64,000 nucleotides of DNA from Bacteroidota bacterium (GTDB lineage Bacteria; Bacteroidota; Ignavibacteria; UBA10030; BY39). Made by a program: the position numbers and the translations under genes. The notes under the pieces are model-generated. The model searched no databases. It was not told where the DNA came from and was given only the letters and a program-made list of their open reading frames with translations. Every line of letters starts with the position of its first letter. Position 1 is the first letter of the stretch. The DNA lies in NCBI GenBank assembly GCA_030017895.1, contig JASEGV010000005.1, positions 5,988 through 69,987 on the forward strand, written 5' to 3'. This document shows positions 23,030 to 58,980 of the stretch, piece after piece.

Positions 23030-23128
23030 CTGAAGTTACGCAAAAGAGTCATTCTGAACGAAGTGAAGAATCTGAAACCTCAAATTCAGGCTATTTTTTG
23101 ACAAAAAGTCAATTCTGCGTAACTTCAG
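23030..23128 (-). mobile_element. MITE-like element copy A (99 bp). TIR CTGAAGTTACGCA/TGCGTAACTTCAG. Flanks ttaactaa / ttaactga (7/8 TSD)
   Basis: Same element family as 40296, 45952, 51683 and 58870, in the same orientation as copy E. Lacks the internal cccgctc..gagcggg hairpin module. Confidence 0.85.
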
Positions 23129-23148
23129 TTAACTGATAACTATATTTC

Positions 23149-23230
23149 AATTTAGTTATTGGTTGTTGTGGTTCGACAAGCTCACCACAAGGTTTTAAGT
23201 TATAGTTCTTCAGTCAATAGTTTTAGTTTT
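23149..23230. repeat. 82-bp direct repeat copy 2
   Basis: See 22919..23000. The two copies bracket MITE copy A. Confidence 0.85.
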
Positions 23231-23303
23231 TAGCTTACAACTATAAAACTACAACCAGCAACTATTTAACCAAAACAAATAACTAATGACTAATAACTAC
23301 TAC

Positions 23304-25553
23304 TCATCTCAGCAGAAGCATCTTCCGCACTACATTAAACCTATTATTTGCGTCCTTAATTCTACAGAAATAAATACCTGAAGCTAAATTGGTTCCATCG
23401 AAGTAAACTGCATTTTTACCTTGATAAAATTCTATGTTATCAGCTAATGTTATTACTTCCTGTCCAAGAACGTTATATACTTTTATATTTACAATACTTT
23501 TTTCAGGCAAATCAAACTCGATTGTAGTAAACGGGTTGAACGGGTTGGGATAATTTTGTGCGAAAACCTCTTGTTGAGAAATTGCAATATTTTGTGTTGT
23601 GAAAGAACCGCTGCCGTATTTCAAAGTTACACCGTACAAACCTACAGCCCAAACATTTGCACTATCAATCGAAAATATATCGTATAAAGCACTCCGTATT
23701 GGCGAGGGGACATTTAACCATGTGCTTCCGCTGTTAGTAGTGGATAAAATTGTCCCAGACAAACCTACCGCCCAACCGTTTAAAGAGTCGGTAAAGGTTA
23801 TGCTTTTTATTTCTCTAGTTGTACCTGACACTTGTGTGAGCCAATTAAAGCCACCGTTTGTTGTTTTTCTAATAGTACCACCTGACCCCACTGCCCAGCC
23901 GGTAGTAGGCGAAATAAAATGGAGTGAATTTAACTTCCGTGTAGTTCCAGATGGCTGAGCAACCCAGCTTTCGCCACTGTTTGTAGTTTTAAAAATTAGT
24001 CCGCTTGTACCTGTTACCCATCCAGTTTGGTTATTTACGAAATAAACATCATAAAAATTATTTGAAACTCTTGGCTTAGTCGTGTACCAGGTATCACCAC
24101 CGTTAGTCGTTTTCCGGACATAACCGCTGCTGCCAACAACGAATCCGAGGTCATGGTTTAAGAAAAATATTTTATAAAAAGTTTTCGTCGAACCGCTCAT
24201 CAAACGGTACCAATTTGTACCACCGTCTGTTGTTTTTTCAATTAAACCCGTTCTGCCGGCAATATATATTGTAGCAGAATCAACCATAAAAATTGAGTTT
24301 GCTTTTTTACCGGCCAAAGCCGTTTGAATAATCCAGTTTGAACCACCATTTGTACTTTTATAAACTATTCCGTAACGCCCTAATGCCCAGCCATTGCTGG
24401 GGTCGGAAAATTGAACAGCATACAAATTATCTCTATGTCCGTGCGAAAGTTGTACCCAATCTTCACCACCATTTGTTGTTTTAAGTATAGTTCCCCTTAC
24501 ACCTGCAACAAAACCTGTAGCAGAATCCAAAAATTTGACAGCATCAAGCCACTCAGTAGTTCCTGATGTCTGTGGAATCCAAGTAATCCCTTCATTGACA
24601 GTTTTCATAATTGTACCGTTTGAACCAACAGCCCATCCGGTTGTTGAATCGACAAAATCCACATCGTCTAACCAGGCATTTGTCCCTGAGTTTGCAGTTA
24701 ACCAATTACTTCCACCATTAGTTGTCCGACGCATAGTGCCTTTTAAACCGACAGCAACACCTTTGTTTTGTGTAAAAAATTTTACGCTGGTTAGAATGTT
24801 TGTTGTTCCGGAACTTTGTGCATTCCAGACCGAACCACCGTTTGAAGTATAATAAATTTTGCCTGAATCGCCAACTGCCCAACCCCTTGAGCCATCAAGA
24901 AAATTGATCTCAAATAATCTGACGGGTGACAAGACAAATTGCGGAGACCAAATACTGCCACCATTACTCGTACGGATTATTAAACCATTCATACCACAAA
25001 TCCAACCGGTATCCCTATTAATGAACATTGCGTCGAAAAAAGGAAAATTAGAATAAAACTGCACCCCGAGGTTTAATTTTGCCCAGTTATCGCCACCGTC
25101 AATAGTTTTTAAAATTTTACCTCCTAAACCGACAGCATATCCGTATAAACTATCTATCATGTCGATGTCGTATAAATCACCGCTTGTAAGTCCTAAACCA
25201 AACTTAACATCCCATGAATTACCGGAATCTGTTGTTTTCAGGATTGAAGAAGAGGCACCCGCAAAAAAAACATTTCTTTTAGAGGTTACATCAATTCCGT
25301 ATATAGAAAAACCCGTTGGGTAAGGATTTTGCCAATACCAATATAAATCGGTGGGGGCGAACATATCTTCAACCATTTCCTCCATGGAACCATACGGAAA
25401 AGAAGAATCTAATGAATCCTCTATAAAGATTTCATCGTCAATATCTATACTGTCGGGTAGCTGTGCATTCAAGTTTCCATTAAGAAGTAGAAAAAACATG
25501 GCACTTATCCACATGAATAATATATATTTTAGTTTTATTATTAAGTATTTCAT
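23304..25553 (-). CDS. BNR/Asp-box repeat beta-propeller protein with T9SS C-terminal domain (749 aa)
   Basis: Signal peptide. About 14 (S/T)(T/S)NGG(x)xW repeats. C-terminal ..FAQNYPNPFNPFTTIEFDLP..VYNVLGQEV..SGIYFCRI... Paralog of 20778..22916. Confidence 0.8.
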   Translation of the reverse strand: MKYLIIKLKYILFMWISAMFFLLLNGNLNAQLPDSIDIDDEIFIEDSLDSSFPYGSMEEMVEDMFAPTDLYWYWQNPYPTGFSIYGIDVTSKRNVFFAGASSSILKTTDSGNSWDVKFGLGLTSGDLYDIDMIDSLYGYAVGLGGKILKTIDGGDNWAKLNLGVQFYSNFPFFDAMFINRDTGWICGMNGLIIRTSNGGSIWSPQFVLSPVRLFEINFLDGSRGWAVGDSGKIYYTSNGGSVWNAQSSGTTNILTSVKFFTQNKGVAVGLKGTMRRTTNGGSNWLTANSGTNAWLDDVDFVDSTTGWAVGSNGTIMKTVNEGITWIPQTSGTTEWLDAVKFLDSATGFVAGVRGTILKTTNGGEDWVQLSHGHRDNLYAVQFSDPSNGWALGRYGIVYKSTNGGSNWIIQTALAGKKANSIFMVDSATIYIAGRTGLIEKTTDGGTNWYRLMSGSTKTFYKIFFLNHDLGFVVGSSGYVRKTTNGGDTWYTTKPRVSNNFYDVYFVNNQTGWVTGTSGLIFKTTNSGESWVAQPSGTTRKLNSLHFISPTTGWAVGSGGTIRKTTNGGFNWLTQVSGTTREIKSITFTDSLNGWAVGLSGTILSTTNSGSTWLNVPSPIRSALYDIFSIDSANVWAVGLYGVTLKYGSGSFTTQNIAISQQEVFAQNYPNPFNPFTTIEFDLPEKSIVNIKVYNVLGQEVITLADNIEFYQGKNAVYFDGTNLASGIYFCRIKDANNRFNVVRKMLLLR

Positions 25554-25581
25554 ATTATAAACTCCTTTCGGGAGAAAAAAT

Positions 25582-28155: not shown

Positions 28156-28994
28156 TATTCAATATTGATACTATACTTCCACGTTTTAGGTTCAGATTTT
28201 ATCACGTACTTACTTGCATCATCCATTCGTTTAGATTCAGCAACGGTTTTAACTATGTAAATCCCTTTGGGAAGATCGCTTATATCTATTTTTGAAGTAA
28301 TTGTTATATCTTTATAAACCACTAAATTCTGGTCATACTTCTTTACAATTTTTCCCTTGCTATCGCCAAATTCAAAATGCATCCTCCCCCAGTAGGAACT
28401 GTTACCGAATCTTTGATATTTAGCCGTGAAAATCAATTCCTTTTTGGATATTCTAATATCTGGCTTGTCAATTATATCAACCGAAGTTGATACTTTTCCT
28501 TTCCGATAATGAATTGGAATAGATTGTTGATTTACGATTTCTAAACCGACTTGGGCTTGTTCTTGTTTATCCGTTAAGAGTTTTGGTTCCAATTTTGATG
28601 GTTTAGAAAAAATTGAAATGCGTGACCAATATTCATTATCTCTGAGCGTTGAGGGTGGCGCTACGATAACCCGAACGTATCGTTTTTCCGAAGGTTTTAG
28701 TAATAACCTATTCGGATATAATGTTGTCCACTCATCCAAAGACTGATCGTCAATGGTAATTTCCTCAGGTGTTTTTATGTATATATTGTTTGTATCATCC
28801 GATGTTACATAGCCGTACTTAATTTCGAGCCAAACTTCAATTTCTTTATCCGTTACATTCAATACATCAAACGATGTTGATCGTCGAGGCTCATCAATAA
28901 ATAGTAAAGTTGGTGAAACTCTTACATTTGCCGTAGCAAAATTAATAACCGTGAAAAGAAAGGATATAATTATTAATGTTTTTTTTAGATTCAT
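28155..28994 (-). CDS. PapD-like periplasmic pilus chaperone (279 aa)
   Basis: Signal peptide, then NVRVSPTLLFIDEPRRSTSFDVLNVTDKEIEVWLEIKY (compare PapD AVSLDRTRAVFDGSEKSMTLDISNDNKQLPYLAQAWIE) and TLYPNRLLLKPSEKRYVRVIV (compare TPPVQRLEPGAKSMVRL). The SIPIHYRK region matches the beta-strand carrying the conserved basic subunit-anchoring residue. Confidence 0.6.
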   Translation of the reverse strand: MNLKKTLIIISFLFTVINFATANVRVSPTLLFIDEPRRSTSFDVLNVTDKEIEVWLEIKYGYVTSDDTNNIYIKTPEEITIDDQSLDEWTTLYPNRLLLKPSEKRYVRVIVAPPSTLRDNEYWSRISIFSKPSKLEPKLLTDKQEQAQVGLEIVNQQSIPIHYRKGKVSTSVDIIDKPDIRISKKELIFTAKYQRFGNSSYWGRMHFEFGDSKGKIVKKYDQNLVVYKDITITSKIDISDLPKGIYIVKTVAESKRMDDASKYVIKSEPKTWKYSINIE

Positions 28995-29020
28995 AAAATA
29001 TTTTCACAGACGCTGATATT

Positions 29021-29058
29021 AAAAAGAGGTGCCTAAACTTTTGTTTCGACACCTCTTT
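29021..29058 (-). terminator. Intra-operon hairpin (partial terminator/attenuator) between the pilin-like gene and the chaperone gene
   Basis: On the - strand: aaagaggtg-N18-cacctcttt followed by tttttaata. 9-bp stem plus U-tract, 32 nt after the pilin stop and ~27 nt before the chaperone ATG. Confidence 0.55.
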
Positions 29059-29089
29059 GCTTATTAAACTACTACCGTATTATAAATTA

Positions 29090-29653
29090 TTATAGTCCGG
29101 TATATGATACGTTTGCAACAATGACGCCAAAGAATTCTACTCCAGGAACTGCGGCGGGAACTGTAAGTGTCATTTCAGGGGCGAATAATGCATCGGCACC
29201 ACCAAAACCAACATTTACTGTAAATGGAGCGTTTGGATTGAATGGAAGTGCATTTGCATAATCTGCACCTGGAACGAACCAAGCTTTTGGGAATGATACA
29301 GGTAACGCACCAAATTCACCAATTAAAGCTGAAGGTAGAATCATCGAGATGGTGATGGATGAACCGGGTGTTAAACCACCGAGTATAAATTCTGTCCATG
29401 CGCTTGGATCCGCAGGAGCTGTTGGATCTGTTAAGCTTACATATTTCCAAGCACCTTCTACTGCATCCAAATAAACCTGGTACGTATAACCACGGTTTAG
29501 ATCTTCGAGTAAGAATTCAGCTGGGTCTAATGTGAAACCGTCTAATACTACAGCTCCAATCGGTGCCCAAGTTGTTGCACTACCAGTGGTTTGCGCACTT
29601 GTTAATCCTACGAATACTAGAACTAATAATAAGGAAAACATTAATTGTTTCAT
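29090..29653 (-). CDS. Small secreted Ala/Gly/Pro/Thr/Val-rich protein (187 aa); candidate major pilin subunit of the chaperone-usher-like triad
   Basis: Signal peptide (cleavage ~TSA|QTT). Mature N-terminus has an alternating hydrophobic stretch (TWAPIGAVVLDGFTL) compatible with a donor strand. C-terminus ..VANVSYTGL with a Tyr near the end. No Cys. First gene after a strong promoter and SD. Size as CsuA/B/FimA-type subunits. Confidence 0.35.
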   Translation of the reverse strand: MKQLMFSLLLVLVFVGLTSAQTTGSATTWAPIGAVVLDGFTLDPAEFLLEDLNRGYTYQVYLDAVEGAWKYVSLTDPTAPADPSAWTEFILGGLTPGSSITISMILPSALIGEFGALPVSFPKAWFVPGADYANALPFNPNAPFTVNVGFGGADALFAPEMTLTVPAAVPGVEFFGVIVANVSYTGL

Positions 29654-29739
29654 TTTGTAACTCCTTTAAATTTGTTATTTGTTTTTGTTAATTGTGTTAA
29701 TTGTGGGTTAAGTGTTAATTAATTAATTGTGAATCTGTT

Positions 29740-29790
29740 AGTTTGTAATTTTAATATTATCATTTTTTTACTAAATGTCAAGTGTTTTTT
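29740..29790 (-). promoter_or_regulatory. Sigma70-type promoter for the pilin-chaperone-usher unit
   Basis: On the - strand: AACACTTGACA-N16-TAATAT. About 95-nt 5'UTR containing three CACAATTAACA-like repeats, and AAAGGAGT SD 7 nt before the ATG at 29653. Confidence 0.45.
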
Positions 29791-40295: not shown

Positions 40296-40429
40296 CTGAA
40301 GTTACGCAGAATTGACTTTTTGTCATGTTGAGCGAAGCGAAACATCTAAAAATAGCCTGAATTTGAGGTTTCAGATTCTTCTCCCGCTCTACGAGCGGGA
40401 TCAGAATGACTCTTTTGCGTATCTTCAGT
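40296..40429 (+). mobile_element. MITE-like element copy B (134 bp, longest variant). Right TIR degenerate (tgcgtatcttcag)
   Basis: Contains all internal modules: gaattgactttttgtca + tgttgagcgaagcgaaacatctaaa + aatagcctgaatttgaggtttcagattcttc + tcccgctctacgagcgggatc + agaatgactctttt. Flanks ttaactga / ttacttat. Confidence 0.85.
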
Positions 40430-45508: not shown

Positions 45509-45951
45509 AAAATCCTCCTATAGTTTTTTGATTGTTTGTTGATTAATTGAAACATTGATTTAAGGTTTGTTTGTTTTGTTATGTATTTTTTGAATTAATA
45601 TAATAAATCTGAGAACTCTTGGGTTGAGAAGAAATGTATTCCAGGCAATTACTCCTTTCAAATATTTTATTTGATTACTAAAAATAATTATTTAAAATTT
45701 CAATAGTTACAGAAACATCTTACTAATTTTGCGCGCTTACTACTTTGTTTTCGGGTATTATATTTTCTAAAGCAATCTAATACTTTTTTTAACAACAGTC
45801 AAGTGTTAAGTAAAATCTGATATAAATATAATGTTTTTTTAATAGAAGTCAAGTATTTTATTAAGAAAAATAAAAAAATATTTTGCTGAAAATTTGTTGT
45901 TTTTCGTGTTAAATTGAAACACTTATAAAACGTGCAAATTACACTGTTTTA

Positions 45952-46084
45952 CTGAAGTTACGCAGAATTGACTTTTTGTCATGTTGAGCGAAGCGAAACA
46001 TCTAAAAATAGTCTGAATTTGAGGTTTCAGATTCTTCTCCCGCTCTACGAGCGGGATCAGAATGACTCTTTTGCGTAACTTCAG
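45952..46084 (+). mobile_element. MITE-like element copy C (133 bp) with perfect 8-bp TSD CTGTTTTA
   Basis: Left flank 45944..45951 ctgtttta. Right flank 46085..46092 ctgtttta. Full internal module set. Lies 18 bp downstream of the aroC stop. Confidence 0.9.
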
Positions 46085-46101
46085 CTGTTTTAAGTGTATT
46101 T

Positions 46102-47264: not shown

Positions 47265-48533
47265 TTAAAGATAAAGTTTTTCAAATTCATACCAAAAAAT
47301 CGGGAACGATTTTTTAACACAACCTGGATTTTTAATTCTGATATTCGGGATTTTTAAACCCGCAACTGCAAAACTCATAGCTATTCTGTGGTCGTTATAA
47401 GTATTTATCTCAGCACCAATATATTTTTCCTTCGGCACAATTTCAAGTCCGCCATCGAACTCTGTAACTTCAGCACCTAACTTCCGCAATTCTGTTGCCA
47501 TTGCAAACAGCCGGTCTGATTCTTTATGACGTAAATGAGCAACGTTCTCAATATTAGTCTTCCCTTTTGCAAATAATGCAATTACTGCTAAAGTCGGAAC
47601 CATATCGGGCATATCGTTCATATCAATTGTGAGACCTGATAGTTCCGAGCTACCAACGACTGTAATCCCCTCAACCCCGAAATAATCGGGGTGAACATCC
47701 TTAATTACTTTACATCCCATTTTTTGGAGGACTTCCAAAAAACCGGCATCACCTTGTTTGGATTGCGAATTTAAGTTTTGCACAGTAACTTTTCCACCAG
47801 TTACTGCTGCGGCTGCAAAGAAATAAGATGCCGATGAATAATCCCCCTCTATTATATATGTAGTGGGTTGGTATCGTTTTGTACTATTAATATAGTAACC
47901 GTTTGTTTTTTCTTGAACATCAGCACCAAATGATTGCATTACTTCGTATGTAATATCAAGATACGGCTTTGAAGCGATCTGACCGCTCAGCAGCAAATCG
48001 ACATTGCTTGCCGCATAAGGGGCTATCAATAATATAGAAGAAACAAACTGGCTGCTTTTAGAAGCGTCGATGCGAACGGTTCCCCCCATTAATTTTCCAC
48101 CATAAATTTTTACAGGCGGGTAGCCGTTGTTTGTTTCTGTTCTGATCCCAAGCTGTTCAAGTGCAGTAGTTAAATCACCAATCGGTCGTAAGTTCATCCG
48201 TTCGTCGCCATATATTATAGTAGAACCATCGGCTAATGCTGCAAAACCTGCAAGAAAGCGCATTGTTGTGCCTGCGTTTCCGACAAATAAATCTGAATCA
48301 GGCGCCTTAATTTTTCCTCCGGTACCTGTTACAATCAACTTGTTTCCAATTTCTTCGATGCCAACACCAAGTTTCCGCAACGCATCTATCATAAGCCGGC
48401 AGTCGTCGGCGGTTGAGAAATTCATTATTTCCGAAATACCATTTGCTAAAGCTGCAGCAATCAATGCCCGGTTTGTAATACTCTTTGATGTTGGAACATT
48501 AACCACAGCGTTCACTCTTTCTATTTTTGTCAT
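47265..48533 (-). CDS. aroA: 3-phosphoshikimate 1-carboxyvinyltransferase (EPSP synthase)
   Basis: 422 aa, colinear with AroA (..LFVGNAGTTMRFL..DERMNLRPIGDL..). ATGA overlap with the upstream gene. Confidence 0.92.
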   Translation of the reverse strand: MTKIERVNAVVNVPTSKSITNRALIAAALANGISEIMNFSTADDCRLMIDALRKLGVGIEEIGNKLIVTGTGGKIKAPDSDLFVGNAGTTMRFLAGFAALADGSTIIYGDERMNLRPIGDLTTALEQLGIRTETNNGYPPVKIYGGKLMGGTVRIDASKSSQFVSSILLIAPYAASNVDLLLSGQIASKPYLDITYEVMQSFGADVQEKTNGYYINSTKRYQPTTYIIEGDYSSASYFFAAAAVTGGKVTVQNLNSQSKQGDAGFLEVLQKMGCKVIKDVHPDYFGVEGITVVGSSELSGLTIDMNDMPDMVPTLAVIALFAKGKTNIENVAHLRHKESDRLFAMATELRKLGAEVTEFDGGLEIVPKEKYIGAEINTYNDHRIAMSFAVAGLKIPNIRIKNPGCVKKSFPIFWYEFEKLYL

Positions 48534-49942
48534 ATAACTGATTTAAAAAATTCTTGCTGCAATTTTGCCTGAGATTCAAATATTTTTGTCCCCGGAATAA
48601 TCTGGCAGCCGGTTTCGGCAGCATCACGCAATAGTTTTGTAACCTTCGGAGTATAAACAAAATCGACGACTAACATTTTTTTATTTAACAGTGTTTTAGG
48701 AATTGGTGATGCGTCAGTATTCGGTACCATACCAACCGGAGTAGTATTAATTATTGCATCCATCTTCTTAATTTTTTGAATATCTTCGAGAGAACTGAAT
48801 TCACATTTAAATTTTTTAGCAAGAATTTTAGCCTTCTTTAAATTCCTACCAAAGATATGAACATTACCGCCACATTTTTTAGCGGCATAAATAGCACTTC
48901 GGGCAGTGCCGCCGGTCCCTAACACAGCTACCGATTTACCGTTTAATAATTTTTCAAAAATCATTACAGCCGCTAACGCATCAGTATTATAACCGACAAA
49001 ACCTTCTGTCGTCTTTATAATAGTATTCACAGAACCGGTGGCTTCCGCCTCATCAGACCGGTTTTTCAATAATTTAGCTGCTTCCTCTTTATGTGGAATT
49101 GTAATGCTTATACCTTGCAGATACTCTAAGTATGTTCTAAAAAAATTTCCGAAATCATCCGTTAAAAAGTTTACATACACTGCATTTAATTTATTCTTCT
49201 TGAAAAATTTATTGTGTATATAAATACCACGGCTATGCGAAACCGGATTCCCCGCCAATCCGAAAATTTTAGTTTGTTCATTTATTGATCTGTAGTTATA
49301 AACTTCCAATAATTTTTTTACAGGAATTTGTCCCGGTGCAGTTTCATCCCCCTCGCCGAGAGAGCAATATGTTATGCATCCGCCAAAGCGGGGCGCAAGT
49401 ATTCGGCTGGTTTCACCCCGCTCTCCCATACAAAAGGCTGATAATTTTATATGCTCTTTTTTTGCTACTTTCAATAAACGAAATATTTGCAGATTTTCAG
49501 ATATATTATTGGCGCAGGTTGCTATTTTGATGTATGAGGGGAATAAATTTTTAATACCAAGATATGGATGTAATACGCTTCTCCATACATTAGAAAAATT
49601 ATGATACGACAAAATTATTTTCGTTTTATGAAGATAAGAGAATTTGATTATATCTAATACAATTTTTTTCTTCGATTTATATTCGATATCTATATATTCT
49701 GCCCCCAACTCAATTGCCTTATATAATAGAGCAATTCGTTTGTCTTCTGATATTCGACGAGTCGGGACAGACGGGCGGTTTGTGATAATTACACCAGGAC
49801 GCGGCTGAGATAAGAGTTGCTCAATATCGAGATCAACTATATTTTCAACACGTATCTCAACAACGTCAGCTAATTTTCCCGCTTTTAACAAGAGTTCGCG
49901 GGCTTCTTTCATATTTTTGGGGGCTATGCTAACGCAAATCAT
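48530..49942 (-). CDS. Bifunctional 3-dehydroquinate dehydratase (type I, AroD) / shikimate 5-dehydrogenase (AroE) fusion
   Basis: 470 aa. The N-terminal ~230 aa is a type I DHQase-like TIM barrel (MICVSIAPKNMKEARE..DVVEIR..ILSYHNF). The C-terminal ~240 aa is AroE-like (..GYNTD..VLGTGGTARSAIYA..). Confidence 0.8.
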   Translation of the reverse strand: MICVSIAPKNMKEARELLLKAGKLADVVEIRVENIVDLDIEQLLSQPRPGVIITNRPSVPTRRISEDKRIALLYKAIELGAEYIDIEYKSKKKIVLDIIKFSYLHKTKIILSYHNFSNVWRSVLHPYLGIKNLFPSYIKIATCANNISENLQIFRLLKVAKKEHIKLSAFCMGERGETSRILAPRFGGCITYCSLGEGDETAPGQIPVKKLLEVYNYRSINEQTKIFGLAGNPVSHSRGIYIHNKFFKKNKLNAVYVNFLTDDFGNFFRTYLEYLQGISITIPHKEEAAKLLKNRSDEAEATGSVNTIIKTTEGFVGYNTDALAAVMIFEKLLNGKSVAVLGTGGTARSAIYAAKKCGGNVHIFGRNLKKAKILAKKFKCEFSSLEDIQKIKKMDAIINTTPVGMVPNTDASPIPKTLLNKKMLVVDFVYTPKVTKLLRDAAETGCQIIPGTKIFESQAKLQQEFFKSVI

Positions 49943-50012: not shown

Positions 50013-50441
50013 TTATAAGACATATCGCTTAATACCTTGTCCAATATTAACAACATTAAAGTTGATTAAATAACCTAAACGTTTGTTAGTTAATTTCAAA
50101 TGACTTAAAACTTGAGCTTCCCAAACAGGATTGATTAAATCCACTGCTTTAATTTCACAAATTATTTTATTCTCAACCAAAACATCCAATCGTAATCCCT
50201 CTTGAAATGTAATACCATCATAAACTATTGGGATATCCATTTGGCGCAAATATTCTAACCCCCTTTTTGTTAATTCGTGGCAAAAACAGATTTCATATAC
50301 TTTTTCCAGTAATCCTGGTCCGAGTGTTTTATGAACAGTATAAGCAGCATCGACAATTTTTTTTCCAATGCTTTCTAATTCCTGAGGTAAGGTGTCAAAA
50401 TCTTTTTTGTGATATTTTGTGTTTTGGTGATTTTGTGGCAT
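50013..50441 (-). CDS. GxxExxY protein (PDDEXK_3 / PD-(D/E)XK nuclease superfamily small protein), inserted inside the aro cluster
   Basis: 142 aa. GLLEKVYE (GxxExxY), ..DVLVENKIICEIKAV.. and C-terminal ..LGYLINFN.. motifs of the family. Confidence 0.7.
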   Translation of the reverse strand: MPQNHQNTKYHKKDFDTLPQELESIGKKIVDAAYTVHKTLGPGLLEKVYEICFCHELTKRGLEYLRQMDIPIVYDGITFQEGLRLDVLVENKIICEIKAVDLINPVWEAQVLSHLKLTNKRLGYLINFNVVNIGQGIKRYVL

Positions 50442-51622: not shown

Positions 51623-51682
51623 CGGAATCAGACGGATTGTTTTATCTGTGTTCGTTTCGAATTCTTTTTTTATCGTTAGTAA

Positions 51683-51793
51683 CTGAAGTTACGCAGAATT
51701 GACTTTTTGTCAAAAAATAGCCTGAATTTGAGGTTTCAGATTCTTCTCCCGCTCTACGAGCGGGATCAGAATGACTCTTTTGCGTAACTTCAG
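51683..51793 (+). mobile_element. MITE-like element copy D (111 bp), inserted into/truncating a GxxExxY gene
   Basis: TIRs intact. Internal modules lack the tgttgagcgaagcg.. segment. Flanks gttagtaa / tcattaac. The stop codon of ORF 51790..51969 lies in the right TIR. Confidence 0.85.
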
Positions 51794-51969
51794 TCATTAA
51801 CTAACAGGTCGACAAAATAATCACCAACTTCGAGCCCTTCGTAATGCACTTTTATATGCTTTTGCTGCTCAACTCTCAACCCGTGTCGTAGTAATTCAAT
51901 CTTAAGAGAGTTTTCGTAAACTTTATAAAATGCACCGATGATAATATTTGTTAATTCTTCATGTAACAT
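51790..51969 (-). pseudogene. Truncated GxxExxY (PDDEXK_3) gene remnant, 59 codons, terminated inside MITE copy D
   Basis: Own translation MLHEELTNIIIGAFYKVYENSLKIELLRHGLRVEQQKHIKVHYEGLEVGDYFVDLLVND* aligns to the N-terminal half of 50013..50441. The C-terminal half (..ENKIIxEIKAV..LINFN) is absent. The last two codons and the stop (gac tga) lie in the element's TIR. Confidence 0.5.
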
Positions 51970-52157: not shown

Positions 52158-52264
52158 AGCTTATTTTTTTATCTTGTGATATCAATTGAAATTTCAAATT
52201 AATATAGTTAATGTTTTAGTCTATTTCAACTAATAACATTCGACTATTTCATGTAATAATCCAT

Positions 52265-55200
52265 TCAAAAATTATGAATCCCGTACTCTTCCATAATCTC
52301 CTTTGCCATCCGTTCAGCGACGCTCCAATCGTGCAACTTTTGATGTGCATCTTCTTCAAGGGATTTTCTGAGGTTTCTGACATAACGGTGATATTTTTTG
52401 AGTATCGACTCAACAACTTTGTCACTCTTGGGAATCTTCAATTGGTAAACATTTTCCTTTGCAAGAATCATGGCAAACTCTGCTATTGACTCGCCTTCGA
52501 TTTGAAGTATTAGTTTTCCGCTCTCATCCTTAAGTTCGTAATGCCCCATAAAATGTTCGGAGTGAAGTTTCTTACCAGTAGTTGGATGTGTTTCGCACTC
52601 AACTTTTAAATAATTATCATCGTAGAAATCTTCGGGGAATTTTCTTATTCCATCCGACAAACAATCTTTTATCACGGAAGCTTTTACCTGATCGTATGAT
52701 ATTTTTACTTTTTCTTTCTGCTGCTTCTTGCGCATTTTCGGCAGCTCAAGCCGCTCATGCACCATTTCACACAAACCCTCGTAAATGCGGGGTAGATATT
52801 CTTCAACATTGAGACCTAAAGCTTTAAGCACAGCCGCATCTAATGCCTTGCGATCTTTTTGTTTGATTTCCTCGAATATTGGTTTGATCTTTCTTTTTTC
52901 TAATTTAGAAATATCGAATTTTACATCGGTATCTGGGATGAGCATGTTTTCAACGTCCTCCACAGTAAACTCCTTAGCATTGCCATTATTAACATCTCTA
53001 CCGTATGCTTCAAGATGAAGAATGTTGAGAAAGGAGTTTAAGAAGACTAAAACACTCTCCTTATTAGGCTTGATGGAATAAAGACGCTTGTCTACTAAGA
53101 ATCTTTCTTTATTATGAAACGCTAAGAATCTATTTCGAGGTGCTGCAAGATAAAGGATCTCATCATCAATAACATTATTGATACCATACCAATATTTTCT
53201 GCTTTGGACAGATTTAATTTTTGGAAAACTCACGTTTTGCTCGTTTGTCTGTGTCTCACCCCACTCAATATATCTTAACGCTCCAACATCTCCCTGTTTT
53301 TTTAACTTTTCTTTCGATTCGTTACAAACGAAAAGTAATACTGTCACCTCATTTGATTCAATTAGTATTTTTTTAAATTGCGACGAGTCTTTGATAATTC
53401 TTTTTAAATATTTTTGTTCAATTTCGCCTTCCCATCCCCGATCGTTGCGGCATTGTACTCTCATGTCATTCTGAGTCCCGTTGCTCTTCAGACGGGACGA
53501 AGAATCTTTCTTTTCTATAGAAGTGAGGCCCTTCGCTTCGCTCAGGGTGACAATGGATGTGAGATAGAAAAATTCATTGATACCTGTCTTAATTCCGAAA
53601 CGCACATCGGCAATCTGCTTCAACGGCACAAGCTTATCTTTGCACTTTTCCAAAATCTCAAAGTAAACATCGGGCGCACGGAGATACTTTCCCCATTTTG
53701 CCAGATCTTCTTTCCCCTGAAGCTCGTGAATAATATCGGATTGCTTTACCATCCGTATGCGCATTTCATCTGTTTCCAAAGAAGAAATGACGTCGGAAAC
53801 TTTTCGTACTTTCTTATCGTGCTCAGCCGATTCGATCATGCTTACAATGCCGTCAATCCTATCCCACCTTTTCTGCGACTCAAGCCGAAGGTCACGAAAT
53901 GGAATAAGCTCTTCCAATTTCATTTTCAGCTTTACAAAATGGACGATGTTATCGCTTCTCGCTTGTGTATTCTCTTCACGCTCAAGAACCGTTACAATCG
54001 TATTTACTGCCGCATCTTCGAACCACGGCTCAGCCCACGATGCAATAATCATCTTGATTTTGAAGTGATCGAGGAAAAATTGTTTCATAACAGAGCCGTA
54101 AGAAACATCGAGCCACGAGTTTGATGTGATGATAGCGAATGCTCCATCCTTTGAGAGAAGCGTTGCAGTGTGAAGGAAAATGTAAGCGTAAATATCCGCC
54201 TGACCGGATAACTTTAACTCAACGTGTCCTTTTTCCACCCATCGCTGGATAGATTTTTTCTGTTCGGCCTCACTCAAACCACGTGCATTGGCGATGTCTT
54301 TCTCTTTTATACTTTTTAATTCGAAAAGCGAGGGGTAAGTAAGAAGGTATTCCTCTGCAAGTATTTTTGTTAAATCCTTTTTATATCCCTTTACTTTCTT
54401 TTCAATAAGTTCTTGGCGTATGTATGGGAAATTACCGACCAGCCCATGAAATTCAGGGATAGTCACGTCAATCTTGTCTTTGAAATATTTACCGGCGTGC
54501 GGTGGTGGAAACGGGAAGCTTTCCCCTTTACGAATTTCAAAAACATCCTTATGAACTACCCTTGGAAAATTATCGAAGTTTTTTACATCCTGCCTGAACA
54601 GATTAATCGTAGAAAGCTCAGCAGGGAATTTTCCGATATCGATTCCCCAGATTTGATTCAGTAACTGGTTGTGTGTTGCCCGATGTCCCGAAAGATAACG
54701 AAGCCGGTCGTACAGCCGGATTAAAAATGTTCCTGAGCCGCATGTCGGGTCTCCGTAAAATCCATCTTTGTCTTGAACGACAGTACCGATGATGAGATCA
54801 ACCAAATCTTCCCGTGTAAAGTATTGTCCAAGATTGTGTCTTTGTTCAGGATCTACTATTTCCTCAAACAACTCACCAATAACATCTTCAGGCAAATCCC
54901 CAAAATGATAAACCCGCAGCTCAGAAAACAATTCACGAAGATACGGATAAGCGGAATTGGGAATGCCAAGCCCTTCAATCGGTCCATCCACGAAAACAGC
55001 TTGCCAATCTTTTTCGCTTGCTTTCGTGAATGCAACCTTGAGCAGACGATTTAAATCCCGCTCATCGGATTGGTGCAGCTCGGGTAAATCTTCAAAGTAC
55101 CTGCTAACTGTAAGATAAAAGATGATTTTTGTTATCAACCCATAAACACGTTGGCGGGCTATAAGTTTGAAGAATTCACTATCCGAGGGATACGTTATGC

Positions 55201-55894
55201 CTTGCTTCGTAACGTACTCAGTGATCTTTGCTTTCTTTTTCTTATCACGGGATTCATCTTTGAAAAACTTTTCAAATTCAGGTATCAACTGTTGTGTTGA
55301 ATTGCGAAGAAGATTTACAAAATAAACTTTCTCCGGCTGAAATCTCTCAAATGATCCGACATCATGAAGCCGTATAACCTCTGAACAAATGCGGCGAATG
55401 TATGCTTTTATTGTTGCCTGAATATCTCCACGCAGCCAGTCATTTATGTTTGTGAGAATAGGTGTCGGCTCAGAACCAAGCGGTTCAAGTTTATTTCCCT
55501 TTACCTTGAACGCGTTGAGTGATTGGAAATCCCAAGTGTAAGCATATTCCACTTTTAGCTGGACAGCTTTTTGTCTGAATGTTTCTAAATTTTCTCTTGC
55601 AGCAAAAGGTGGTTTTAGTTCTAAGTACGTGTAAGCATCACGCGCTTGAAGGTTTTTCCAGATTACGAGATCGCCAAAACGAGTTGTTGTTTCTGTGGGA
55701 ATGCCGGGTTCATTCGTTGCTTCCGTGAAAGGAAAAGCATTTCGTTTGATATGCTCGTTGAACCATTCGGTAATCTTGCCGAGAAGTTCGCGTTCGTTTG
55801 TCTTTATTTTTCCCATTATGCCGGATATTGGATGAATAAAAGTTGGTTTGATGATTATTAAGTTAATAATAGGTTGCCAGAAAAGCAAAACCAA
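52265..55894 (-). CDS. MmeI-like single-polypeptide Type IIG (Type IIL) restriction-modification enzyme: N-terminal PD-ExK nuclease + gamma-class N6-adenine methyltransferase + target-recognition region
   Basis: MTase motif I YGDPTCGSGTFLI and motif IV-like GNFPYI. N-terminal (F)GDLVIW..YLELK resembles the MmeI D-x9-ExK nuclease motif. C-terminal FGIKTGINEFF motif of the MmeI/PglX family. The probable real start is M at 55816 (MGKIKTNE), because the first 26 codons from 55894 are hydrophobic read-through. Carries an in-frame 96-bp palindromic insertion at 53462..53557. Confidence 0.8.
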   Translation of the reverse strand: MVLLFWQPIINLIIIKPTFIHPISGIMGKIKTNERELLGKITEWFNEHIKRNAFPFTEATNEPGIPTETTTRFGDLVIWKNLQARDAYTYLELKPPFAARENLETFRQKAVQLKVEYAYTWDFQSLNAFKVKGNKLEPLGSEPTPILTNINDWLRGDIQATIKAYIRRICSEVIRLHDVGSFERFQPEKVYFVNLLRNSTQQLIPEFEKFFKDESRDKKKKAKITEYVTKQGITYPSDSEFFKLIARQRVYGLITKIIFYLTVSRYFEDLPELHQSDERDLNRLLKVAFTKASEKDWQAVFVDGPIEGLGIPNSAYPYLRELFSELRVYHFGDLPEDVIGELFEEIVDPEQRHNLGQYFTREDLVDLIIGTVVQDKDGFYGDPTCGSGTFLIRLYDRLRYLSGHRATHNQLLNQIWGIDIGKFPAELSTINLFRQDVKNFDNFPRVVHKDVFEIRKGESFPFPPPHAGKYFKDKIDVTIPEFHGLVGNFPYIRQELIEKKVKGYKKDLTKILAEEYLLTYPSLFELKSIKEKDIANARGLSEAEQKKSIQRWVEKGHVELKLSGQADIYAYIFLHTATLLSKDGAFAIITSNSWLDVSYGSVMKQFFLDHFKIKMIIASWAEPWFEDAAVNTIVTVLEREENTQARSDNIVHFVKLKMKLEELIPFRDLRLESQKRWDRIDGIVSMIESAEHDKKVRKVSDVISSLETDEMRIRMVKQSDIIHELQGKEDLAKWGKYLRAPDVYFEILEKCKDKLVPLKQIADVRFGIKTGINEFFYLTSIVTLSEAKGLTSIEKKDSSSRLKSNGTQNDMRVQCRNDRGWEGEIEQKYLKRIIKDSSQFKKILIESNEVTVLLFVCNESKEKLKKQGDVGALRYIEWGETQTNEQNVSFPKIKSVQSRKYWYGINNVIDDEILYLAAPRNRFLAFHNKERFLVDKRLYSIKPNKESVLVFLNSFLNILHLEAYGRDVNNGNAKEFTVEDVENMLIPDTDVKFDISKLEKRKIKPIFEEIKQKDRKALDAAVLKALGLNVEEYLPRIYEGLCEMVHERLELPKMRKKQQKEKVKISYDQVKASVIKDCLSDGIRKFPEDFYDDNYLKVECETHPTTGKKLHSEHFMGHYELKDESGKLILQIEGESIAEFAMILAKENVYQLKIPKSDKVVESILKKYHRYVRNLRKSLEEDAHQKLHDWSVAERMAKEIMEEYGIHNF
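53462..53557. repeat. In-frame 96-bp palindromic element inside the restriction-modification gene (encodes SIVTLSEAKGLTSIEKKDSSSRLKSNGTQNDM)
   Basis: catgtcattctga-gtcccgttgctcttcagacgggac-gaagaatc...gaggcccttcgcttcgctcagggtgacaatg. Its arms are related to internal modules of the MITE (gtcattctga[tcccgctc..gagcggga]gaagaatc; tgtcatgttgagcgaagcgaaacatc). Length is a multiple of 3 and there is no stop codon. Confidence 0.7.
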
Positions 55895-55933
55895 TAAATT
55901 CTTTGAAACAAGCCAATTTTTCTTTAGATTTAA

Positions 55934-58873
55934 TTGATGAAAACATCTAAGTCAGGCGAAAAGATTCAAAGAAGAAAGAACTCAACAAAGTACAAGAAGA
56001 ACGACCGTATTCTTACCAAAAATCTTATCATCCGCGGCGCACGGGTTCACAATCTCAAAAACATTAATTTAGAACTCCCCCGCAACCAACTTATTGTATT
56101 TACAGGAGTTAGCGGTTCGGGGAAATCGAGTTTAGCTTTTGATACAATCTATGCCGAAGGACAGCGCCGTTTTGTCGAAAGTTTATCAGCTTATGCCCGC
56201 CAATTTCTTGAACGAATGGATAAACCCGACGTTGATTCTATCGAGGGATTGAGTCCGGCTATTGCAATCGAACAAATCACTTCCACACGTAATCCTCGAT
56301 CGACAGTCGGTACAACCACTGAAATATATGACTATCTCCGACTTCTCTTTGCTCGAATCGGAAAAACCATTTGCCACAAATGTGGAAAATTCGTTCAACG
56401 CGACTCGGTTAAAACCGTACTCTCCAAATTAGAAACAGAGCTTGCTGATCTTTCCGAATCACGCCTTTATGTAATGTTCCCTTTGCAAACTCACACCAAA
56501 GCAAGTTTTAAGAAAGAAATCGAGAATATCAAGAAGCAGGGATTTATAAGAATCTTTTGTAAAAACGAGTTGATAGATTTAACAGAAATTTCCTCAACAA
56601 AACTTTGTACGAAGGAGTTAAACAAGAGCGATATATTTGTAGTAGTCGATAGAATAATTTTCAGAAAATCGGACGACACTACACGGCTTGCAGATTCGAT
56701 TGAAACAGCATTTAATCTTGGAAATGGTAATCTGATTTTAAAAGTTCTTGAGAACGATAAAACTTTACGATTCAACCAGCATTTTAATTGTGCTGATTGC
56801 AGCATCGGGTATGAAGAACCTGACCCGCGTTTGTTTTCGTTTAACAATCCTTATGGGGCTTGCCCTGTTTGTCAAGGTTTTGGGAAATCGGTAGGGATAG
56901 ATTTAGATTTGGTAATACCGAACAAATCGAAAACTATTCGTGATGGCGCCATTCAACCTTGGACTACACCCAAATGGAAAAAATATCTTGAAGATTTTAT
57001 AATAATTGCTGACGATGCGGGTGTTCGTTTAGATGTTCCGTTTTATGATTTAACTAAAGAAGAAATCAACATCATACTAAATGGATGGGATGGTTTCGCC
57101 GGTCTTTACAAATTTTTTAAGTTCATCGAAAGCAAATCGTATAAAATACATTACAGATATTTTTTAAGTCGCTTCCGTGGTTATACTACCTGCCAGGATT
57201 GTAATGGTTCACGTGTAAGAAAAGAAGCATTAAACATTCGTATTGCAGATAAGACAATTTTCGATGTTGTGCGGATGACGCTTGATCAGGCGTTCGTTTT
57301 TTTTAATCCGTCGTTTGACGGACAATTAAGTGAATTCGATTTTAATATTGCCAGCAGAATATTAGAAGAACTGAAACGCCGCTTGAAATATCTTGTTGAT
57401 GTTGGAATCGGATATCTCACACTCGACCGGTTATCGAACACTCTTTCGGGGGGCGAATCGCAACGGATTAATTTAGCTACATCTTTAGGTTCGTCGTTAA
57501 TGGGTGCTATTTATGTTTTAGATGAACCGAGTATCGGATTGCACCCGCGTGATAACGACAAACTTATCGGGATTCTTAAATCGATACGAGATGTGGGCAA
57601 TACCGTTATTGTAGTTGAACATGATTCAGATATGATGAAATCGGCAGATGTGATACTTGATTTAGGACCGGGGGCTGGCGAAAACGGCGGAAATGTAGTG
57701 TTTCAAGGGACTTACGATGAAATCAAAAGAGATTCAATGTCGCTTACCGGCAAGTATTTGAGCGGAAGGCTCGCTATTCCGCTCCCTAAAAATCGAAGAT
57801 TTAATGAGACCAAAAACCTTATCATAAAAGGTGCATCAGCAAACAACCTGAAAAATGTGGATGTCGAAATTCCACTGAATAAATTTGTATGTATCACCGG
57901 CGTGAGTGGTTCCGGTAAAAGCACATTGGTAATGGATATACTTTATCCGGCTCTCAAGAATATCAAAGCGAACAGTAGCGTTAATTCAGAAAATTTTCTC
58001 TCCGAAAATCTCAAGCATCTGCAGGGAAGCCAATTTATAGACGGCGTTGAATTGGTTGACCAATCCCCGATTGGTCGAACGCCGCGCTCGAACCCTGTTA
58101 CTTATATAAAAGTTTTTGATGCAATCCGAAATCTTTATGCAAACACGCAAGCTGCAAGAATCCGTGGATATACACCGGGAAGTTTTTCGTTCAACGTGGC
58201 TGCTGGCCGTTGCGATGCTTGCGAAGGAAGCGGTATCCAAGTTATCGAGATGCAGTTCCTTGCCGACTTGCAACTGACTTGCGATGTTTGTAAAGGAAAA
58301 CGCTTTAAAAAAGAAATACTCGAAGTCAAATACCACAGTAAAAATATAAGCGATGTTTTGAACCTGACTGTCTCGGAAGCAATAACATTTTTCAGTTCCG
58401 ATGTTTCAGCACGACGGATTGTCAAGCAATTACAGATTTTACTTGACGTAGGACTTGGATACATCCGGCTTGGGCAACAGGCAACAACACTATCGGGCGG
58501 TGAAGCACAACGAATAAAATTAGCCGCACACTTGTTAGCGCAGGATACAGGAGGTAGAAAACTTTTTATTTTCGATGAGCCGACAACAGGTTTACATTTC
58601 GATGATATTGCAAAACTTTTAAAATGCTTCGACGCCTTAATTATGGACGGACACTCAGTTCTCATCATCGAACATAATATGGATGTAATAAAATGCGCCG
58701 ATTGGATAATTGATTTAGGTCCCGAAGCCGGTGAGGCAGGCGGTCGTGTTGTTGCGGTTGGAACTCCCGAAGAAGTTGCTTTAAATAAAAACTCACATAC
58801 TGGAAAGTTTTTAAAAATAATTGATAGTATGCGGGAGTATTATTACCGAAACAAAAATTTACTCAGTTACTGA
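55934..58873 (+). CDS. uvrA: Excinuclease ABC subunit A
   Basis: 979 aa. Two ABC ATPase modules ([14 protein letters not shown].. and ..[13 protein letters not shown]..), zinc-finger Cys clusters, LSGGE signature motifs. The stop codon TGA (58871-58873) lies inside the left TIR of MITE copy E. Confidence 0.95.
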
Positions 58874-58980
58874 AGTTACGCAAAAGAGTCATTCTGATCC
58901 CGCTCGTAGAGCGGGAGAAGAATCTGAAACCTCAAATTCAGACTATTTTTTGACAAAAAGTCAATTCTGCGTAACTTCAG
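58870..58980 (-). mobile_element. MITE-like element copy E (111 bp) with 7-bp TSD TCAGTTA, overlapping the uvrA stop codon
   Basis: Left flank 58863..58869 tcagtta. Right flank 58981..58987 tcagtta. Sequence is the reverse complement of copy D. Confidence 0.9.

Follow-up and report, generated by a model that had tools for sequence, protein, structure and literature searches.

Five short repeats in the window, the whole stretch of DNA that was analysed (64,000 nt from a Bacteroidota bacterium of the lineage Ignavibacteria; UBA10030; BY39; GCA_030017895.1, contig JASEGV010000005.1, positions 5,988-69,987, forward strand), are very probably non-autonomous transposable elements (MITEs) with ends of the IS701 type, carrying a REP-like hairpin pair as cargo. 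The preliminary description of this DNA had already read them as MITEs, and a partner IS, known from other genomes, target-site duplications and empty sites in relatives agree with that reading. The family is an ordinary kind of element with one modest twist, a REP-like hairpin pair that also inserts alone. The five copies are:

23030-23128, minus strand: copy A, 99 bp, hairpin 1 absent, hairpin 2 with the mini-tip ACGAAGT
40296-40428, plus strand: copy B, 133 bp, two hairpins, right end TGCGTATCTTCAG with one mismatch
45952-46084, plus strand: copy C, 133 bp, 18 nt 3' of the aroC stop codon
51683-51793, plus strand: copy D, 111 bp, 61 nt 5' of the aroB start, within a decayed PDDEXK_3 gene
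58870-58980, minus strand: copy E, 111 bp, overlapping the uvrA stop codon

The repeat family proved to be real. All five copies are non-coding, have the common 13-nt termini CTGAAGTTACGCA...TGCGTAACTTCAG and align over their whole length, and in each of the five the similarity ends exactly at these termini. The terminal inverted repeats, as expected of MITEs, are perfect in nine of the ten termini, the exception being the right end of copy B. Matches to CTGAAGTTACGCA with at most two mismatches number 11 in the window versus 1.3 expected; ten are the paired ends of the five elements, and the eleventh, with two mismatches at 47461-47473 within aroA, is taken as a chance match. The coordinates first given for A, C, D and E were exact, while that of B ran one base too far (40429). 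Two orientations are present, as had been reported, with A and E inverted relative to B, C and D. At 99-133 bp the elements lie within the size of MITEs (under ~300 bp), and the only ORFs in them are chance run-ons of 26-51 aa. The location of the insertions at gene boundaries or in a decayed gene was likewise borne out: A has a T9SS BNR-repeat protein gene on either side and, like B and C, is intergenic, E lies over the uvrA stop and D lies in the truncated PDDEXK_3 gene.

No transposase had been seen in the window, and our searches gave the same result. No match was obtained by tblastn of the window with the transposase of the partner IS (L096), and Pfam scans of 40 of the 41 window ORFs of at least 120 aa found no transposase domain; the 41st (48530-49942) is, by homology, an aroD/E-type 3-dehydroquinate dehydratase gene. 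The autonomous IS with the same terminal repeats that the earlier reading called for was found in other genomes. In another Bacteroidota MAG, L096:1028-2208 is an IS of 1181 bp whose ends, CTGAAGTTACGCAAAAA, are perfect over 17 bp and whose flanking duplication is the 7-bp TTAATAA; the termini of the window elements are identical to those bounding it. Its single 365-aa ORF is, from its sequence, an IS701-family DDE transposase: with the NCBIfam model for IS701 family transposases, NF049921, it scores 329.8 bits, above the cutoff of 250, and in Pfam it hits DDE_5 and DDE_Tnp_1. The same ends bound L089:184-1339, also in another genome, whose transposase is 42% identical, and L115 holds a partial IS copy (86% identical). 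Ignavibacteria ISs with ~60% identity are 1175-1181 bp long, end in CTCACCTTACGCAAAA or CTCACGTTACGCAAAA and have 7-bp duplications, and an IS on a Piscirickettsia salmonis plasmid (46% identical) has the end CTCACCTTACGCAC and an 8-bp duplication read by eye from its flanks. The clade of the partner transposase comprises 5613 protein clusters at E<=1e-40. Among the ISs found, none had subterminal sequence like that of the window family beyond the common ends.

The partner resembles the IS701 family (NF049921 subgroup) in passing the model cutoff, in its two DDE domains and in being a single-ORF IS of ~1.18 kb; the window differs in holding non-autonomous derivatives only. IS701-family elements are usually described with duplications of 4-5 bp (ISfinder), and those of ISAba11, a distant member whose transposase is ~28% identical to the partner's, are also 4-5 bp. 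In contrast, L096, L131 and the P. salmonis IS (by eye in this last case) have duplications of 7-8 bp. Consequently, the partner clade is atypical, which points to a distinct subgroup.

The short repeats flanking copies C, E and A had been proposed as marks of transposition. Copy C lies between perfect 8-bp duplications CTGTTTTA (45944-45951 and 46085-46092) and copy E between perfect 7-bp duplications TCAGTTA (58863-58869 and 58981-58987). The flanks of copy A, TTAACTAA at 23022-23029 and TTAACTGA at 23129-23136, match at seven of eight positions and are a slightly decayed 8-bp target-site duplication. Inspection of the flanks of B and D revealed no clean duplication, which may be explained by decay at B and by an adjacent deletion at D; at the site of B the window is ~6 nt longer than the relative L121. 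Public genomes yielded 62 elements with these ends; the duplication is perfect at 7 bp in 34 of them and at 8 bp in five, a total of 39 versus 2.4 expected when flanks are permuted among elements. This result confirms that the 7-8-bp flanking repeats are true target-site duplications throughout the superfamily, of the fixed length expected of MITEs. To produce them the transposase would make a staggered cut of 7-8 bp. The target is AT-rich, approximately TTAWTAA, and contains a stop triplet in all 39 perfect duplications. A target that always holds a stop triplet would explain why copies gather immediately 3' of stop codons and between genes.

The interior had been described as modular, with an optional segment and an optional hairpin. 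The size variants stand, but the modules are a pair of REP-like hairpins whose tips can be exchanged, and not optional spacers. The segment said to be 25 nt long is actually 22 nt (TGTTGAGCGAAGCGAAACATCT), and the hairpin said to be missing from A is replaced there by a 7-nt mini-hairpin ACTTCGT. The two hairpins face inward and have the form GTC-AT...AT-C; in copy C they are:

45978-46002, plus strand: hairpin 1, (T)GTC-ATGTT-GA-GCGAAGC-GA-AACAT-C
46030-46066, minus strand: hairpin 2, (A)GTC-ATTCT-GA-TCCCGCTCGTAGAGCGGGA-GA-AGAAT-C

Hairpin 1 is the same in B and is precisely deleted from the other three copies, A, D and E. The base of hairpin 2 is common to C and A, with a long GC-rich tip in C instead of ACGAAGT. 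Each hairpin starts with A-T, T-A in a stem of 5 bp, followed by tandem G.A mismatches, a further 2 bp and then either a 3-nt loop or a long tip. The tag is TGTC in hairpin 1 and AGTC in hairpin 2, and across loci the base before GTC is T in 33 cases, A in 11 and C in 2. Predicted folding is strong on both strands, with z = -6.5 on each for copy C and z = -4.6 and -5.2 for copy A. Hairpins are found at 5.3 per kb inside elements with these ends versus 0.051 per kb outside, and by strict criteria 19 of 55 MITE-size elements have a hairpin on each strand. The interior is an inverted hairpin pair, not transposase debris. The size variants would have arisen by precise loss of hairpin 1 and by replacement of hairpin tips, and the reshuffling of hairpin states among copies suggests recombination or gene conversion between them. 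In about half of the MITEs with these ends the interior is wholly different, so it is the ends and not the hairpins that they have in common.

CGTC-tagged REPs, which include Rickettsia RPE-4/6 and Neisseria dRS3, combine a CGTC tag (variants TGTC, CCTC) with a stem of 8-9 bp whose first pairs are A-T, T-A; the loop is 4-5 nt long and the tail, CCA, 3 nt (Di Nocera et al. 2013, PMC3733652). They form mostly inverted dimers with spacers of 20-100 bp, include in-frame intragenic copies, are reported from both Bacteroidetes and Chlorobi, and lack a transposase of their own (PMC3733652). In sister MITE families, 18 distinct hairpins with 8-bp stems have TGTC or CGTC tags, first pairs A-T, T-A, loops of 4-5 nt (one of 6) and tails CCA, CTA or CTT; judged by sequence, they have every listed feature of the CGTC/TGTC-tagged class. 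The window hairpins differ in being a derived form, with the shorter stem, tandem G.A mismatches, one AGTC tag, and tips that are either a GCGAAGC-type mini-hairpin or long and GC-rich. The dimers here also lie between IS701-type ends, an association not described in PMC3733652.

Hairpins of this kind also occur in the window outside such ends:

53465-53551, minus strand: 87-nt hairpin dimer without IS ends, GTCACCCT-GAGCGAAGCGA-AGGGC ... GATTCTTC-tip-TCAGAATGAC
17195-17230, minus strand: solitary hairpin of this type, GTCATTGCGAG-tip-CGAAGCAATC, in intergenic DNA 3' of prfA

The dimer has the architecture of the MITE interior and lies in frame, as 29 codons, in a 1209-aa restriction-modification methylase ORF, nine homologues of which are missing the segment. 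As in the CGTC REPs, there are both inverted dimers and an in-frame intragenic unit. The solitary hairpin resembles one in an L123 dimer (~13905-13994). Downstream of aroC, L123 has a dimer without IS ends that is insertion-polymorphic relative to the window and L121. The in-frame dimer indicates that the hairpin cargo can spread without the IS ends, and hence that some other mobilising activity also exists.

These observations bear on the alternative that the copies are REP/REPIN-type repeats spread by a tyrosine enzyme (HUH/Y1, RAYT-like) or another hairpin-recognising enzyme, the outer repeats being only part of the palindrome. We consider this improbable. It would account for an interior that, like REP dimers, is an inverted dimer of tagged hairpins and for the insertion-polymorphic dimers without IS ends at 53465-53551 and downstream of aroC in L123, and REP dimers embedded in long palindromes have been reported (PMC3733652). 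However, a full IS with a DDE transposase has outer ends identical to these, 7-8-bp duplications are what a staggered DDE cut leaves and single-strand transposition by a Y1 enzyme does not, and about half of the MITEs with these ends have another interior altogether. REPINs of RAYT transposases are built of GTAG-tagged REPs (PMC3116915). They resemble the window elements in having two inverted hairpins with a spacer and stems that vary in a compensatory manner around a fixed short tag, but the tag here is GTC-AT, and the copies bounded by terminal inverted repeats make 7-8-bp duplications. No RAYT gene or Y1_Tnp domain was matched by Pfam among the window ORFs scanned. Taking the copies as IS701-ended MITEs, we offer as a tentative conjecture that CGTC/TGTC REP dimers of Bacteroidota and Ignavibacteriota might be systematic cargo of the IS701 subgroup, with tips as reshuffled cassettes and naked dimers that insert themselves, even in frame. 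If so, a DDE transposase would be one vehicle for the orphan CGTC/TGTC REP class.

Empty sites in relatives, proposed earlier as a check on the duplications, were found to carry the duplicated sequence once. The site of copy C is empty in the syntenic relative L123, with a single 8-mer copy that differs by one base (CTTAAAACAG-MITE-TAAAACAGTG versus CTTAAAACATTG), and a sister copy in a second relative, L121:20913-21042, occupies a site at which both the window and L123 lack an element. The site of copy B is empty in L121 and L123, and that of copy D in L123. The nearest relatives compared are ~75% identical in protein, so this insertion polymorphism is between species, not strains.

The difference in insertion sites among syntenic relatives argues against a fixed structured-RNA locus. 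A conserved RNA or regulatory DNA (terminator, attenuator or small RNA), immobile and kept at gene ends by selection, would fit the strong predicted folds on both strands and the position of copies at gene boundaries. We regard this explanation as highly unlikely, given positions not conserved between syntenic relatives, two orientations relative to adjacent genes, the absence of T runs after the hairpins in all five copies, target duplications and ends common with a transposase-encoding IS; a search of the whole window with Rfam 15 gave 0 matches at the gathering threshold. An origin of the copies from a single ancestral intergenic sequence, by segmental duplication or by recombination, with the flanking repeats as chance similarity, is already disfavoured and barely conceivable: the flanks are AT-rich and mutually similar (TTAACTGA-like), which raises chance matches, but similarity stops exactly at the 13-nt ends in every copy, duplications far exceed those with permuted flanks, and at empty sites the duplicated sequence is present just once.

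As MITEs, the window elements have several counterparts. Nezha of Anabaena/Nostoc is ~130-170 bp long and has ends and direct repeats in common with ISNpu3 (PMC3184786). It is likewise small, non-coding and strongly folding, an IS has identical terminal inverted repeats, and it shows direct-repeat flanks, AT-rich intergenic sites, and both empty and filled orthologous sites. The host phylum differs, and the likeness is one of published description; on Nostoc plasmids the partner transposase has distant homologues only (~29% identity). Small dispersed repeats (SDR) are reportedly nested in cyanobacterial minitransposons. By this description they are alike in being tiny hairpin-forming units that create length variants of MITEs; they are set apart, again by description, in that hairpin tips are replaced here, as opposed to clear nested insertions with a target of their own. 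In Porphyromonas gingivalis, BrickBuilt and MITEPgRS have ends of the IS5 family, GAGACCTTTGCA, and tandem repeats of 23 or 41 nt in their interior (PMC4596501). These MITEs belong to the same phylum, their ends too derive from an IS and their internal module varies; it is made of tandem repeats in theirs and hairpin dimers in the window family.

Two insertions appear to have altered the genes in which they lie:

55934-58873, plus strand: uvrA, stop TGA at 58871-58873, bases 2-4 of the copy E terminal repeat
51790-51969, minus strand: truncated PDDEXK_3 ORF, 59 aa, with 77% identity to the first 71 residues of the 131-aa L123 orthologue

The end starts with C-TGA-AG, so an element landing in the tail of a gene would supply a new stop at once, as in uvrA and PDDEXK_3. 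Effects on neighbouring genes, for example on mRNA 3'-end structure or through promoter displacement at aroB, are hypothetical. Copy E apparently supplies the uvrA stop codon: removal of the element and one duplicate gives ...NLLS-TAA, versus the current protein end ...NLLSY. Copy D likewise appears to truncate the PDDEXK_3 gene, whose stop TGA lies inside the terminal repeat; the middle section of the gene is missing beside the element, and a C-terminal remnant, TNDKKRIRNEHR, is found across it.

A search of the window with the 13-mer CTGAAGTTACGCA, allowing up to two mismatches, gave 11 matches, compared with 1.3 expected from shuffled sequences. Ten of the 11 pair up as the inverted ends of five elements, confirming the five-copy family with shared inverted ends proposed in a preliminary description. 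The coordinates proposed there stand for A, C, D and E, but copy B ends at 40428 and not at 40429.

MITE copies in the window
23030-23128, MITE A, opposite orientation to B, C and D
40296-40428, MITE B, same orientation as C and D
45952-46084, MITE C, same orientation as B and D
51683-51793, MITE D, same orientation as B and C
58870-58980, MITE E, opposite orientation to B, C and D

When aligned in a common orientation, the five copies are near-identical save for two indel blocks, and similarity ends precisely at the termini. The two blocks bear out the modular interior described earlier, but the optional block measures 22 nt, and the long hairpin described as optional is, in A, replaced by a 7-nt mini-hairpin and not absent. 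As also described, copy C is flanked by a perfect 8-bp duplication (CTGTTTTA), copy E by a perfect 7-bp duplication (TCAGTTA) and copy A by an 8-bp repeat with a single mismatch (7 of 8); no duplication was found in the flanks of B and D. The window has a G+C content of ∼38% and carries many type IX secretion (T9SS) substrates (Por_Secre_tail, CHU_C) together with uvrA, clusters for the shikimate pathway and for polysaccharide synthesis, and a TetR/efflux unit, a gene content that marks it as Bacteroidota. Its 64 kb yielded no gene for a DDE or Y1 transposase, in agreement with the earlier reading. MITE A is bracketed by an 85-bp direct repeat (22918-23002 and 23149-23233; 96% identity, 231 bp apart), each copy of which contains the hairpin TTGTGGT-TCGACAAGCTC-ACCACAA, with only two copies in the window; it may be a local intergenic duplication older than the MITE insertion. 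A repeat finder also reported direct repeats with a 123-nt period at 20778-25553. Many of these are coding repeats of ∼41 aa in two BNR/Ycf48-like T9SS proteins (ORFs 20778-22916 and 23304-25553), unrelated to the MITE.

An autonomous IS with the same terminal inverted repeats, sought as the preliminary description had advised, is present in other genomes. We scanned one genome per species (596 Gb) for CTGAAGTTACGCARAA, and at least 120 stretches of DNA matched. By our own arithmetic ∼550 chance matches to a 16-mer are expected in this amount of DNA; single matches in unrelated phyla were discounted as chance, and the analysis relied solely on multi-hit genomes or paired ends. Among the matches listed, paired inverted ends and multi-hit genomes cluster in Bacteroidota and Ignavibacteriota, with a few such cases in Beggiatoaceae and Methylococcaceae MAGs, all taxonomic labels being those of the MAGs. 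Two pairs of ends among the matches listed lie ∼1.2 kb apart. One is L096:1028-2208 (Bacteroidetes MAG WY2.bin135), an element of 1181 bp whose 17-bp ends (CTGAAGTTACGCAAAAA) match perfectly and whose 7-bp duplication is TTAATAA; it has one ORF, of 365 aa. The encoded protein matches NCBIfam NF049921 ‘IS701 family transposase’ at 329.8 bits (cutoff 250) as well as Pfam DDE_5 and DDE_Tnp_1. The other, L089:184-1339 (Saprospiraceae MAG), shares these ends and encodes a transposase with 42% identity, and a partial IS copy 86% identical was found in an Ignavibacteriales genome (L115). Elements of ∼50-150 bp with the same ends also occur in gammaproteobacterial MAGs (L026, Thioploca; L040, Marithrix; L051, Methylococcaceae), a phylogenetic spread like that reported for TAACTGA repeats (PMC4679880); these occurrences may reflect horizontal transfer or bin contamination.

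The clade of the L096 transposase comprises 5613 protein clusters at E ≤ 1e-40, and many of these come from contigs ∼1.15-1.2 kb long, near the length of the IS. Members from Ignavibacteria that are ∼60% identical measure 1175-1181 bp and have ends CTCACCTTACGCAAAA or CTCACGTTACGCAAAA and 7-bp duplications, and a 46% identical IS on a Piscirickettsia salmonis plasmid has the end CTCACCTTACGCAC and, on visual inspection of its printed flanks, a duplication of 8 bp. These relatives therefore define a subgroup by its ends (CTNANNTTACGCA) and 7-8-bp duplications; ISAba11 and cyanobacterial IS701 members are just ∼28-30% identical to the partner transposase. In 6 of 10 fetched loci (L130-L133, L136 and L138, Ignavibacteria contigs) a related 1175-bp IS adjoins a Mu-like portal protein gene (PF06074), and some copies may lie in prophage DNA. 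Viral contigs scanned with the window end pattern gave 18 single unpaired matches, taken as chance, and no sign of a phage-borne element; blastn of copy C against annotated plasmids and phages gave no match. A metagenome scan with the family core GAATTTGAGGTTTMAGATTCTTC gave 0 matches, while one with the extended left end returned two further MITE copies only and no parent IS. A literature search with the end sequence and the hairpin loop sequences returned just irrelevant primer or oligonucleotide matches.

We also examined target-site duplications in 62 elements with these ends, taken from the fetched loci and the window. A perfect duplication of 7 bp (34 elements) or 8 bp (5 elements) was present in 39 of them, compared with 2.4 matches when right flanks were permuted among elements. 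The target consensus is T-T-A-W-T-A-A, and all 39 duplications contain a stop triplet on one or other strand. Such a target preference suffices to explain the location of copies shortly after stop codons and between genes. We conclude that the IS701 subgroup characterised by ends CTNANNTTACGCAAAA, duplications of 7-8 bp and the target TTAWTAA is widespread and is the source of many unrelated MITE families, and we infer that A-E are a MITE family mobilised by a transposase of this subgroup. The heptamer TAACTGA occurs 20 times in the window against 9.3 expected, about half of these being the junction TAA/CTGA at element ends; TAACTGA arrays (PMC4679880) were rejected as a separate feature, there being no tandem arrays in the window.

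Two relatives from different species, L121 (JAUXOG010000090, 74% aa identity) and L123 (CAMTWO010000038, 75%), were fetched via the aroD/E protein and retain the gene order uvrA, shikimate genes, T9SS proteins. A search of both yielded no MITE copies besides L121:1534-1654 and L121:20913-21042. Once copy C and one duplicate are removed, the window aligns across the site with L123 (CTTAAAACAG[MITE]TAAAACAGTGTAATTTGC in the window versus CTTAAAACATTGAAATTTGC in L123), so site C is empty in L123, which has a single 8-mer. The reciprocal case is L121:20913-21042, located directly 3′ of the stop codon of a gene for a 286-aa T9SS protein with TAAATAA on one side and TAAGTAA on the other; at this position L123 has no MITE and only one TAAGTAA, and no MITE follows the orthologous stop codon in the window. 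Site B is empty in both relatives, and the ∼6 extra nucleotides in the window are consistent with a decayed duplication.

The interior was aligned using thirteen copies from the window and JAUXOG plus two from JGI metagenomes. From the left end it reads (T)GTC-ATGTT-GA-[tip]-GA-AACAT-C (hairpin 1), a spacer with a small CTGAA/TTCAG hairpin, and the reverse complement of (A)GTC-ATTCT-GA-[tip]-GA-AGAAT-C (hairpin 2), followed by the right end. No T runs follow the hairpins, and a role as intrinsic terminator was rejected. Hairpin 1 is precisely missing from A, D and E; its tips are GCGAAGC, TCCCGACTAGTCGGGA or TCCCGAGGAATCGGGA. Hairpin 2 carries ACGAAGT, TCCCGCTCGTAGAGCGGGA, ATCCGCCAGAGGCGGAT or one of two other variants, and the central AGA of ATCCGCCAGAGGCGGAT is AAA in one JAUXOG copy. 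In JAUXOG the two states of each tip are seen on both subterminal SNP backgrounds, and in the window all four combinations are seen between hairpin 1 (present or missing) and the C/T SNP of AATAG(C/T)CTG. The simplest reading of these few copies is that tips and SNPs would have been reshuffled as copies recombined or underwent gene conversion with one another. The GC-rich tip hairpin TCCGCC-NNN-GGCGGA of some JAUXOG copies also lies outside MITEs in the JAUXOG relative (L090:3988-4017 and 7452-7466), once as a tandem pair, which hints at a pool of free small hairpins as the source of the tips.

About half of the other MITE families that share these ends also contain hairpins of this type (GTC, a stem opening A-T then T-A, C), usually as an inward-facing pair. 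Under strict criteria at least one is present in 27 of 55 elements and both in 19, a density of 5.3 per kb compared with 0.051 per kb in surrounding DNA; the autonomous IS (L096) contains none. Eighteen distinct hairpins with 8-bp stems have TGTC or CGTC tags, invariant first pairs A-T and T-A, variable yet complementary inner pairs, loops of 4 nt (GAAA) or 5 nt (CTTGT, CTTGA), except for one of 6 nt, and tails CCA, CTA or CTT. They share features of tag, stem, loop and tail with the CGTC-tagged REPs of Bacteroidetes and Chlorobi described by Di Nocera et al. 2013 (PMC3733652), in which the tag is often TGTC, stems are 8-9 bp with A-T first and second, loops are 4-5 nt and the 3-nt tail consensus is CCA. 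These REPs are mostly inverted dimers, include intragenic in-frame units and have no associated transposase; some dimers are embedded in long palindromes of unknown origin, and the mode of spread is an open question (PMC3733652). The hairpins of the window itself would be a derived form that may belong to the CGTC class: they combine 5 bp and tandem G.A with either a mini-hairpin or a long tip, and one tag is AGTC. Bacteroidota are already known to contain MITEs in very large numbers (bioRxiv 10.1101/2024.01.18.576219), and the A-E family in itself is one further bacterial MITE family. The less ordinary part is its interior, a REP-like hairpin dimer, probably of a class without known transposase, that also inserts alone. 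Enrichment and architecture point to a possible, testable link between DDE-mobilised MITEs and CGTC-type REP hairpins.

An 87-nt hairpin dimer without IS ends lies at 53465-53551 (minus strand). The base of its second hairpin, GATTCTTC...TCAGAATGAC, is identical to that of the MITE; in the first hairpin the GAGCGAAGCGA loop recurs on a stem that is complementary but of another sequence. It contributes 29 in-frame codons (VTLSEAKGLTSIEKKDSSSRLKSNGTQND) to a 1209-aa N6_Mtase/Eco57I-type ORF (52265-55894); this segment is missing from nine homologues, and the protein alignment is normal on either side. Another such dimer lies downstream of aroC in L123, with none there in the window or L121, and more occur in L116, L011, L100 and L110. 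Hairpin dimers thus also spread independently of IS701-type ends; both this and the in-frame dimer resemble Rickettsia palindromic elements (CGTC class per PMC3733652), the latter those that occur within genes. A solitary hairpin resembles one in the L123 dimer:

17195-17230, minus strand, solitary hairpin GTCATTGCGAG...CGAAGCAATC, intergenic, downstream of prfA

Movement of the TIR-bounded copies purely by a REP/RAYT mechanism is disfavoured, since their ends are common to a DDE IS, they have 7-8-bp duplications and many MITEs with the same ends have different interiors. A structured RNA or regulatory element, the alternative named in the preliminary description, is also disfavoured: there is no Rfam match at the gathering threshold in the whole window, positions are not conserved across relatives, both orientations occur and the copies have flanking duplications. 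Sharp boundaries and empty sites speak strongly against segmental duplication. The interpretation as a non-autonomous mobile element (MITE) holds, given the partner IS, the duplications and the empty sites.

Insertion has altered neighbouring genes. The MITE end starts C-TGA-AG, and copy E landed on the stop codon of uvrA, changing the reconstructed ...AGT TAA to ...AGT TAC TGA, so that uvrA gained one residue and its stop codon now comes from E. Copy D interrupts a PDDEXK_3 gene and supplies the closing TGA of the truncated ORF. The 59-aa ORF (51790-51969) corresponds to residues 1-71 of the L123 orthologue (131 aa) with 77% identity; the C-terminal peptide of that orthologue, TNDKKRIRNEHR, is encoded beyond D, on the opposite side. 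The middle of the gene is missing, and a deletion adjoining D would account for the lack of a duplication at D. For annotation, the element-derived stops explain the odd ends of uvrA and the truncated PDDEXK_3 gene, and the spurious-looking 29-aa insert in the restriction-modification gene is flagged. In the window PDDEXK_3 genes lie on both sides of aroB: the upstream one (51642-51969), broken by D, also lacks 12 internal codons, and the downstream one (50013-50441, 142 aa) is intact. The relatives have a single PDDEXK_3 gene near aroB, downstream in L121 and upstream in L123. The uvrA-aroB interval contains the 1209-aa type IIG-like restriction-modification gene (52265-55894) in the window and two M16 peptidase genes in L121 (5616-8402) and L123 (5424-8210); the restriction-modification gene is a lineage-specific replacement adjoining MITE D.
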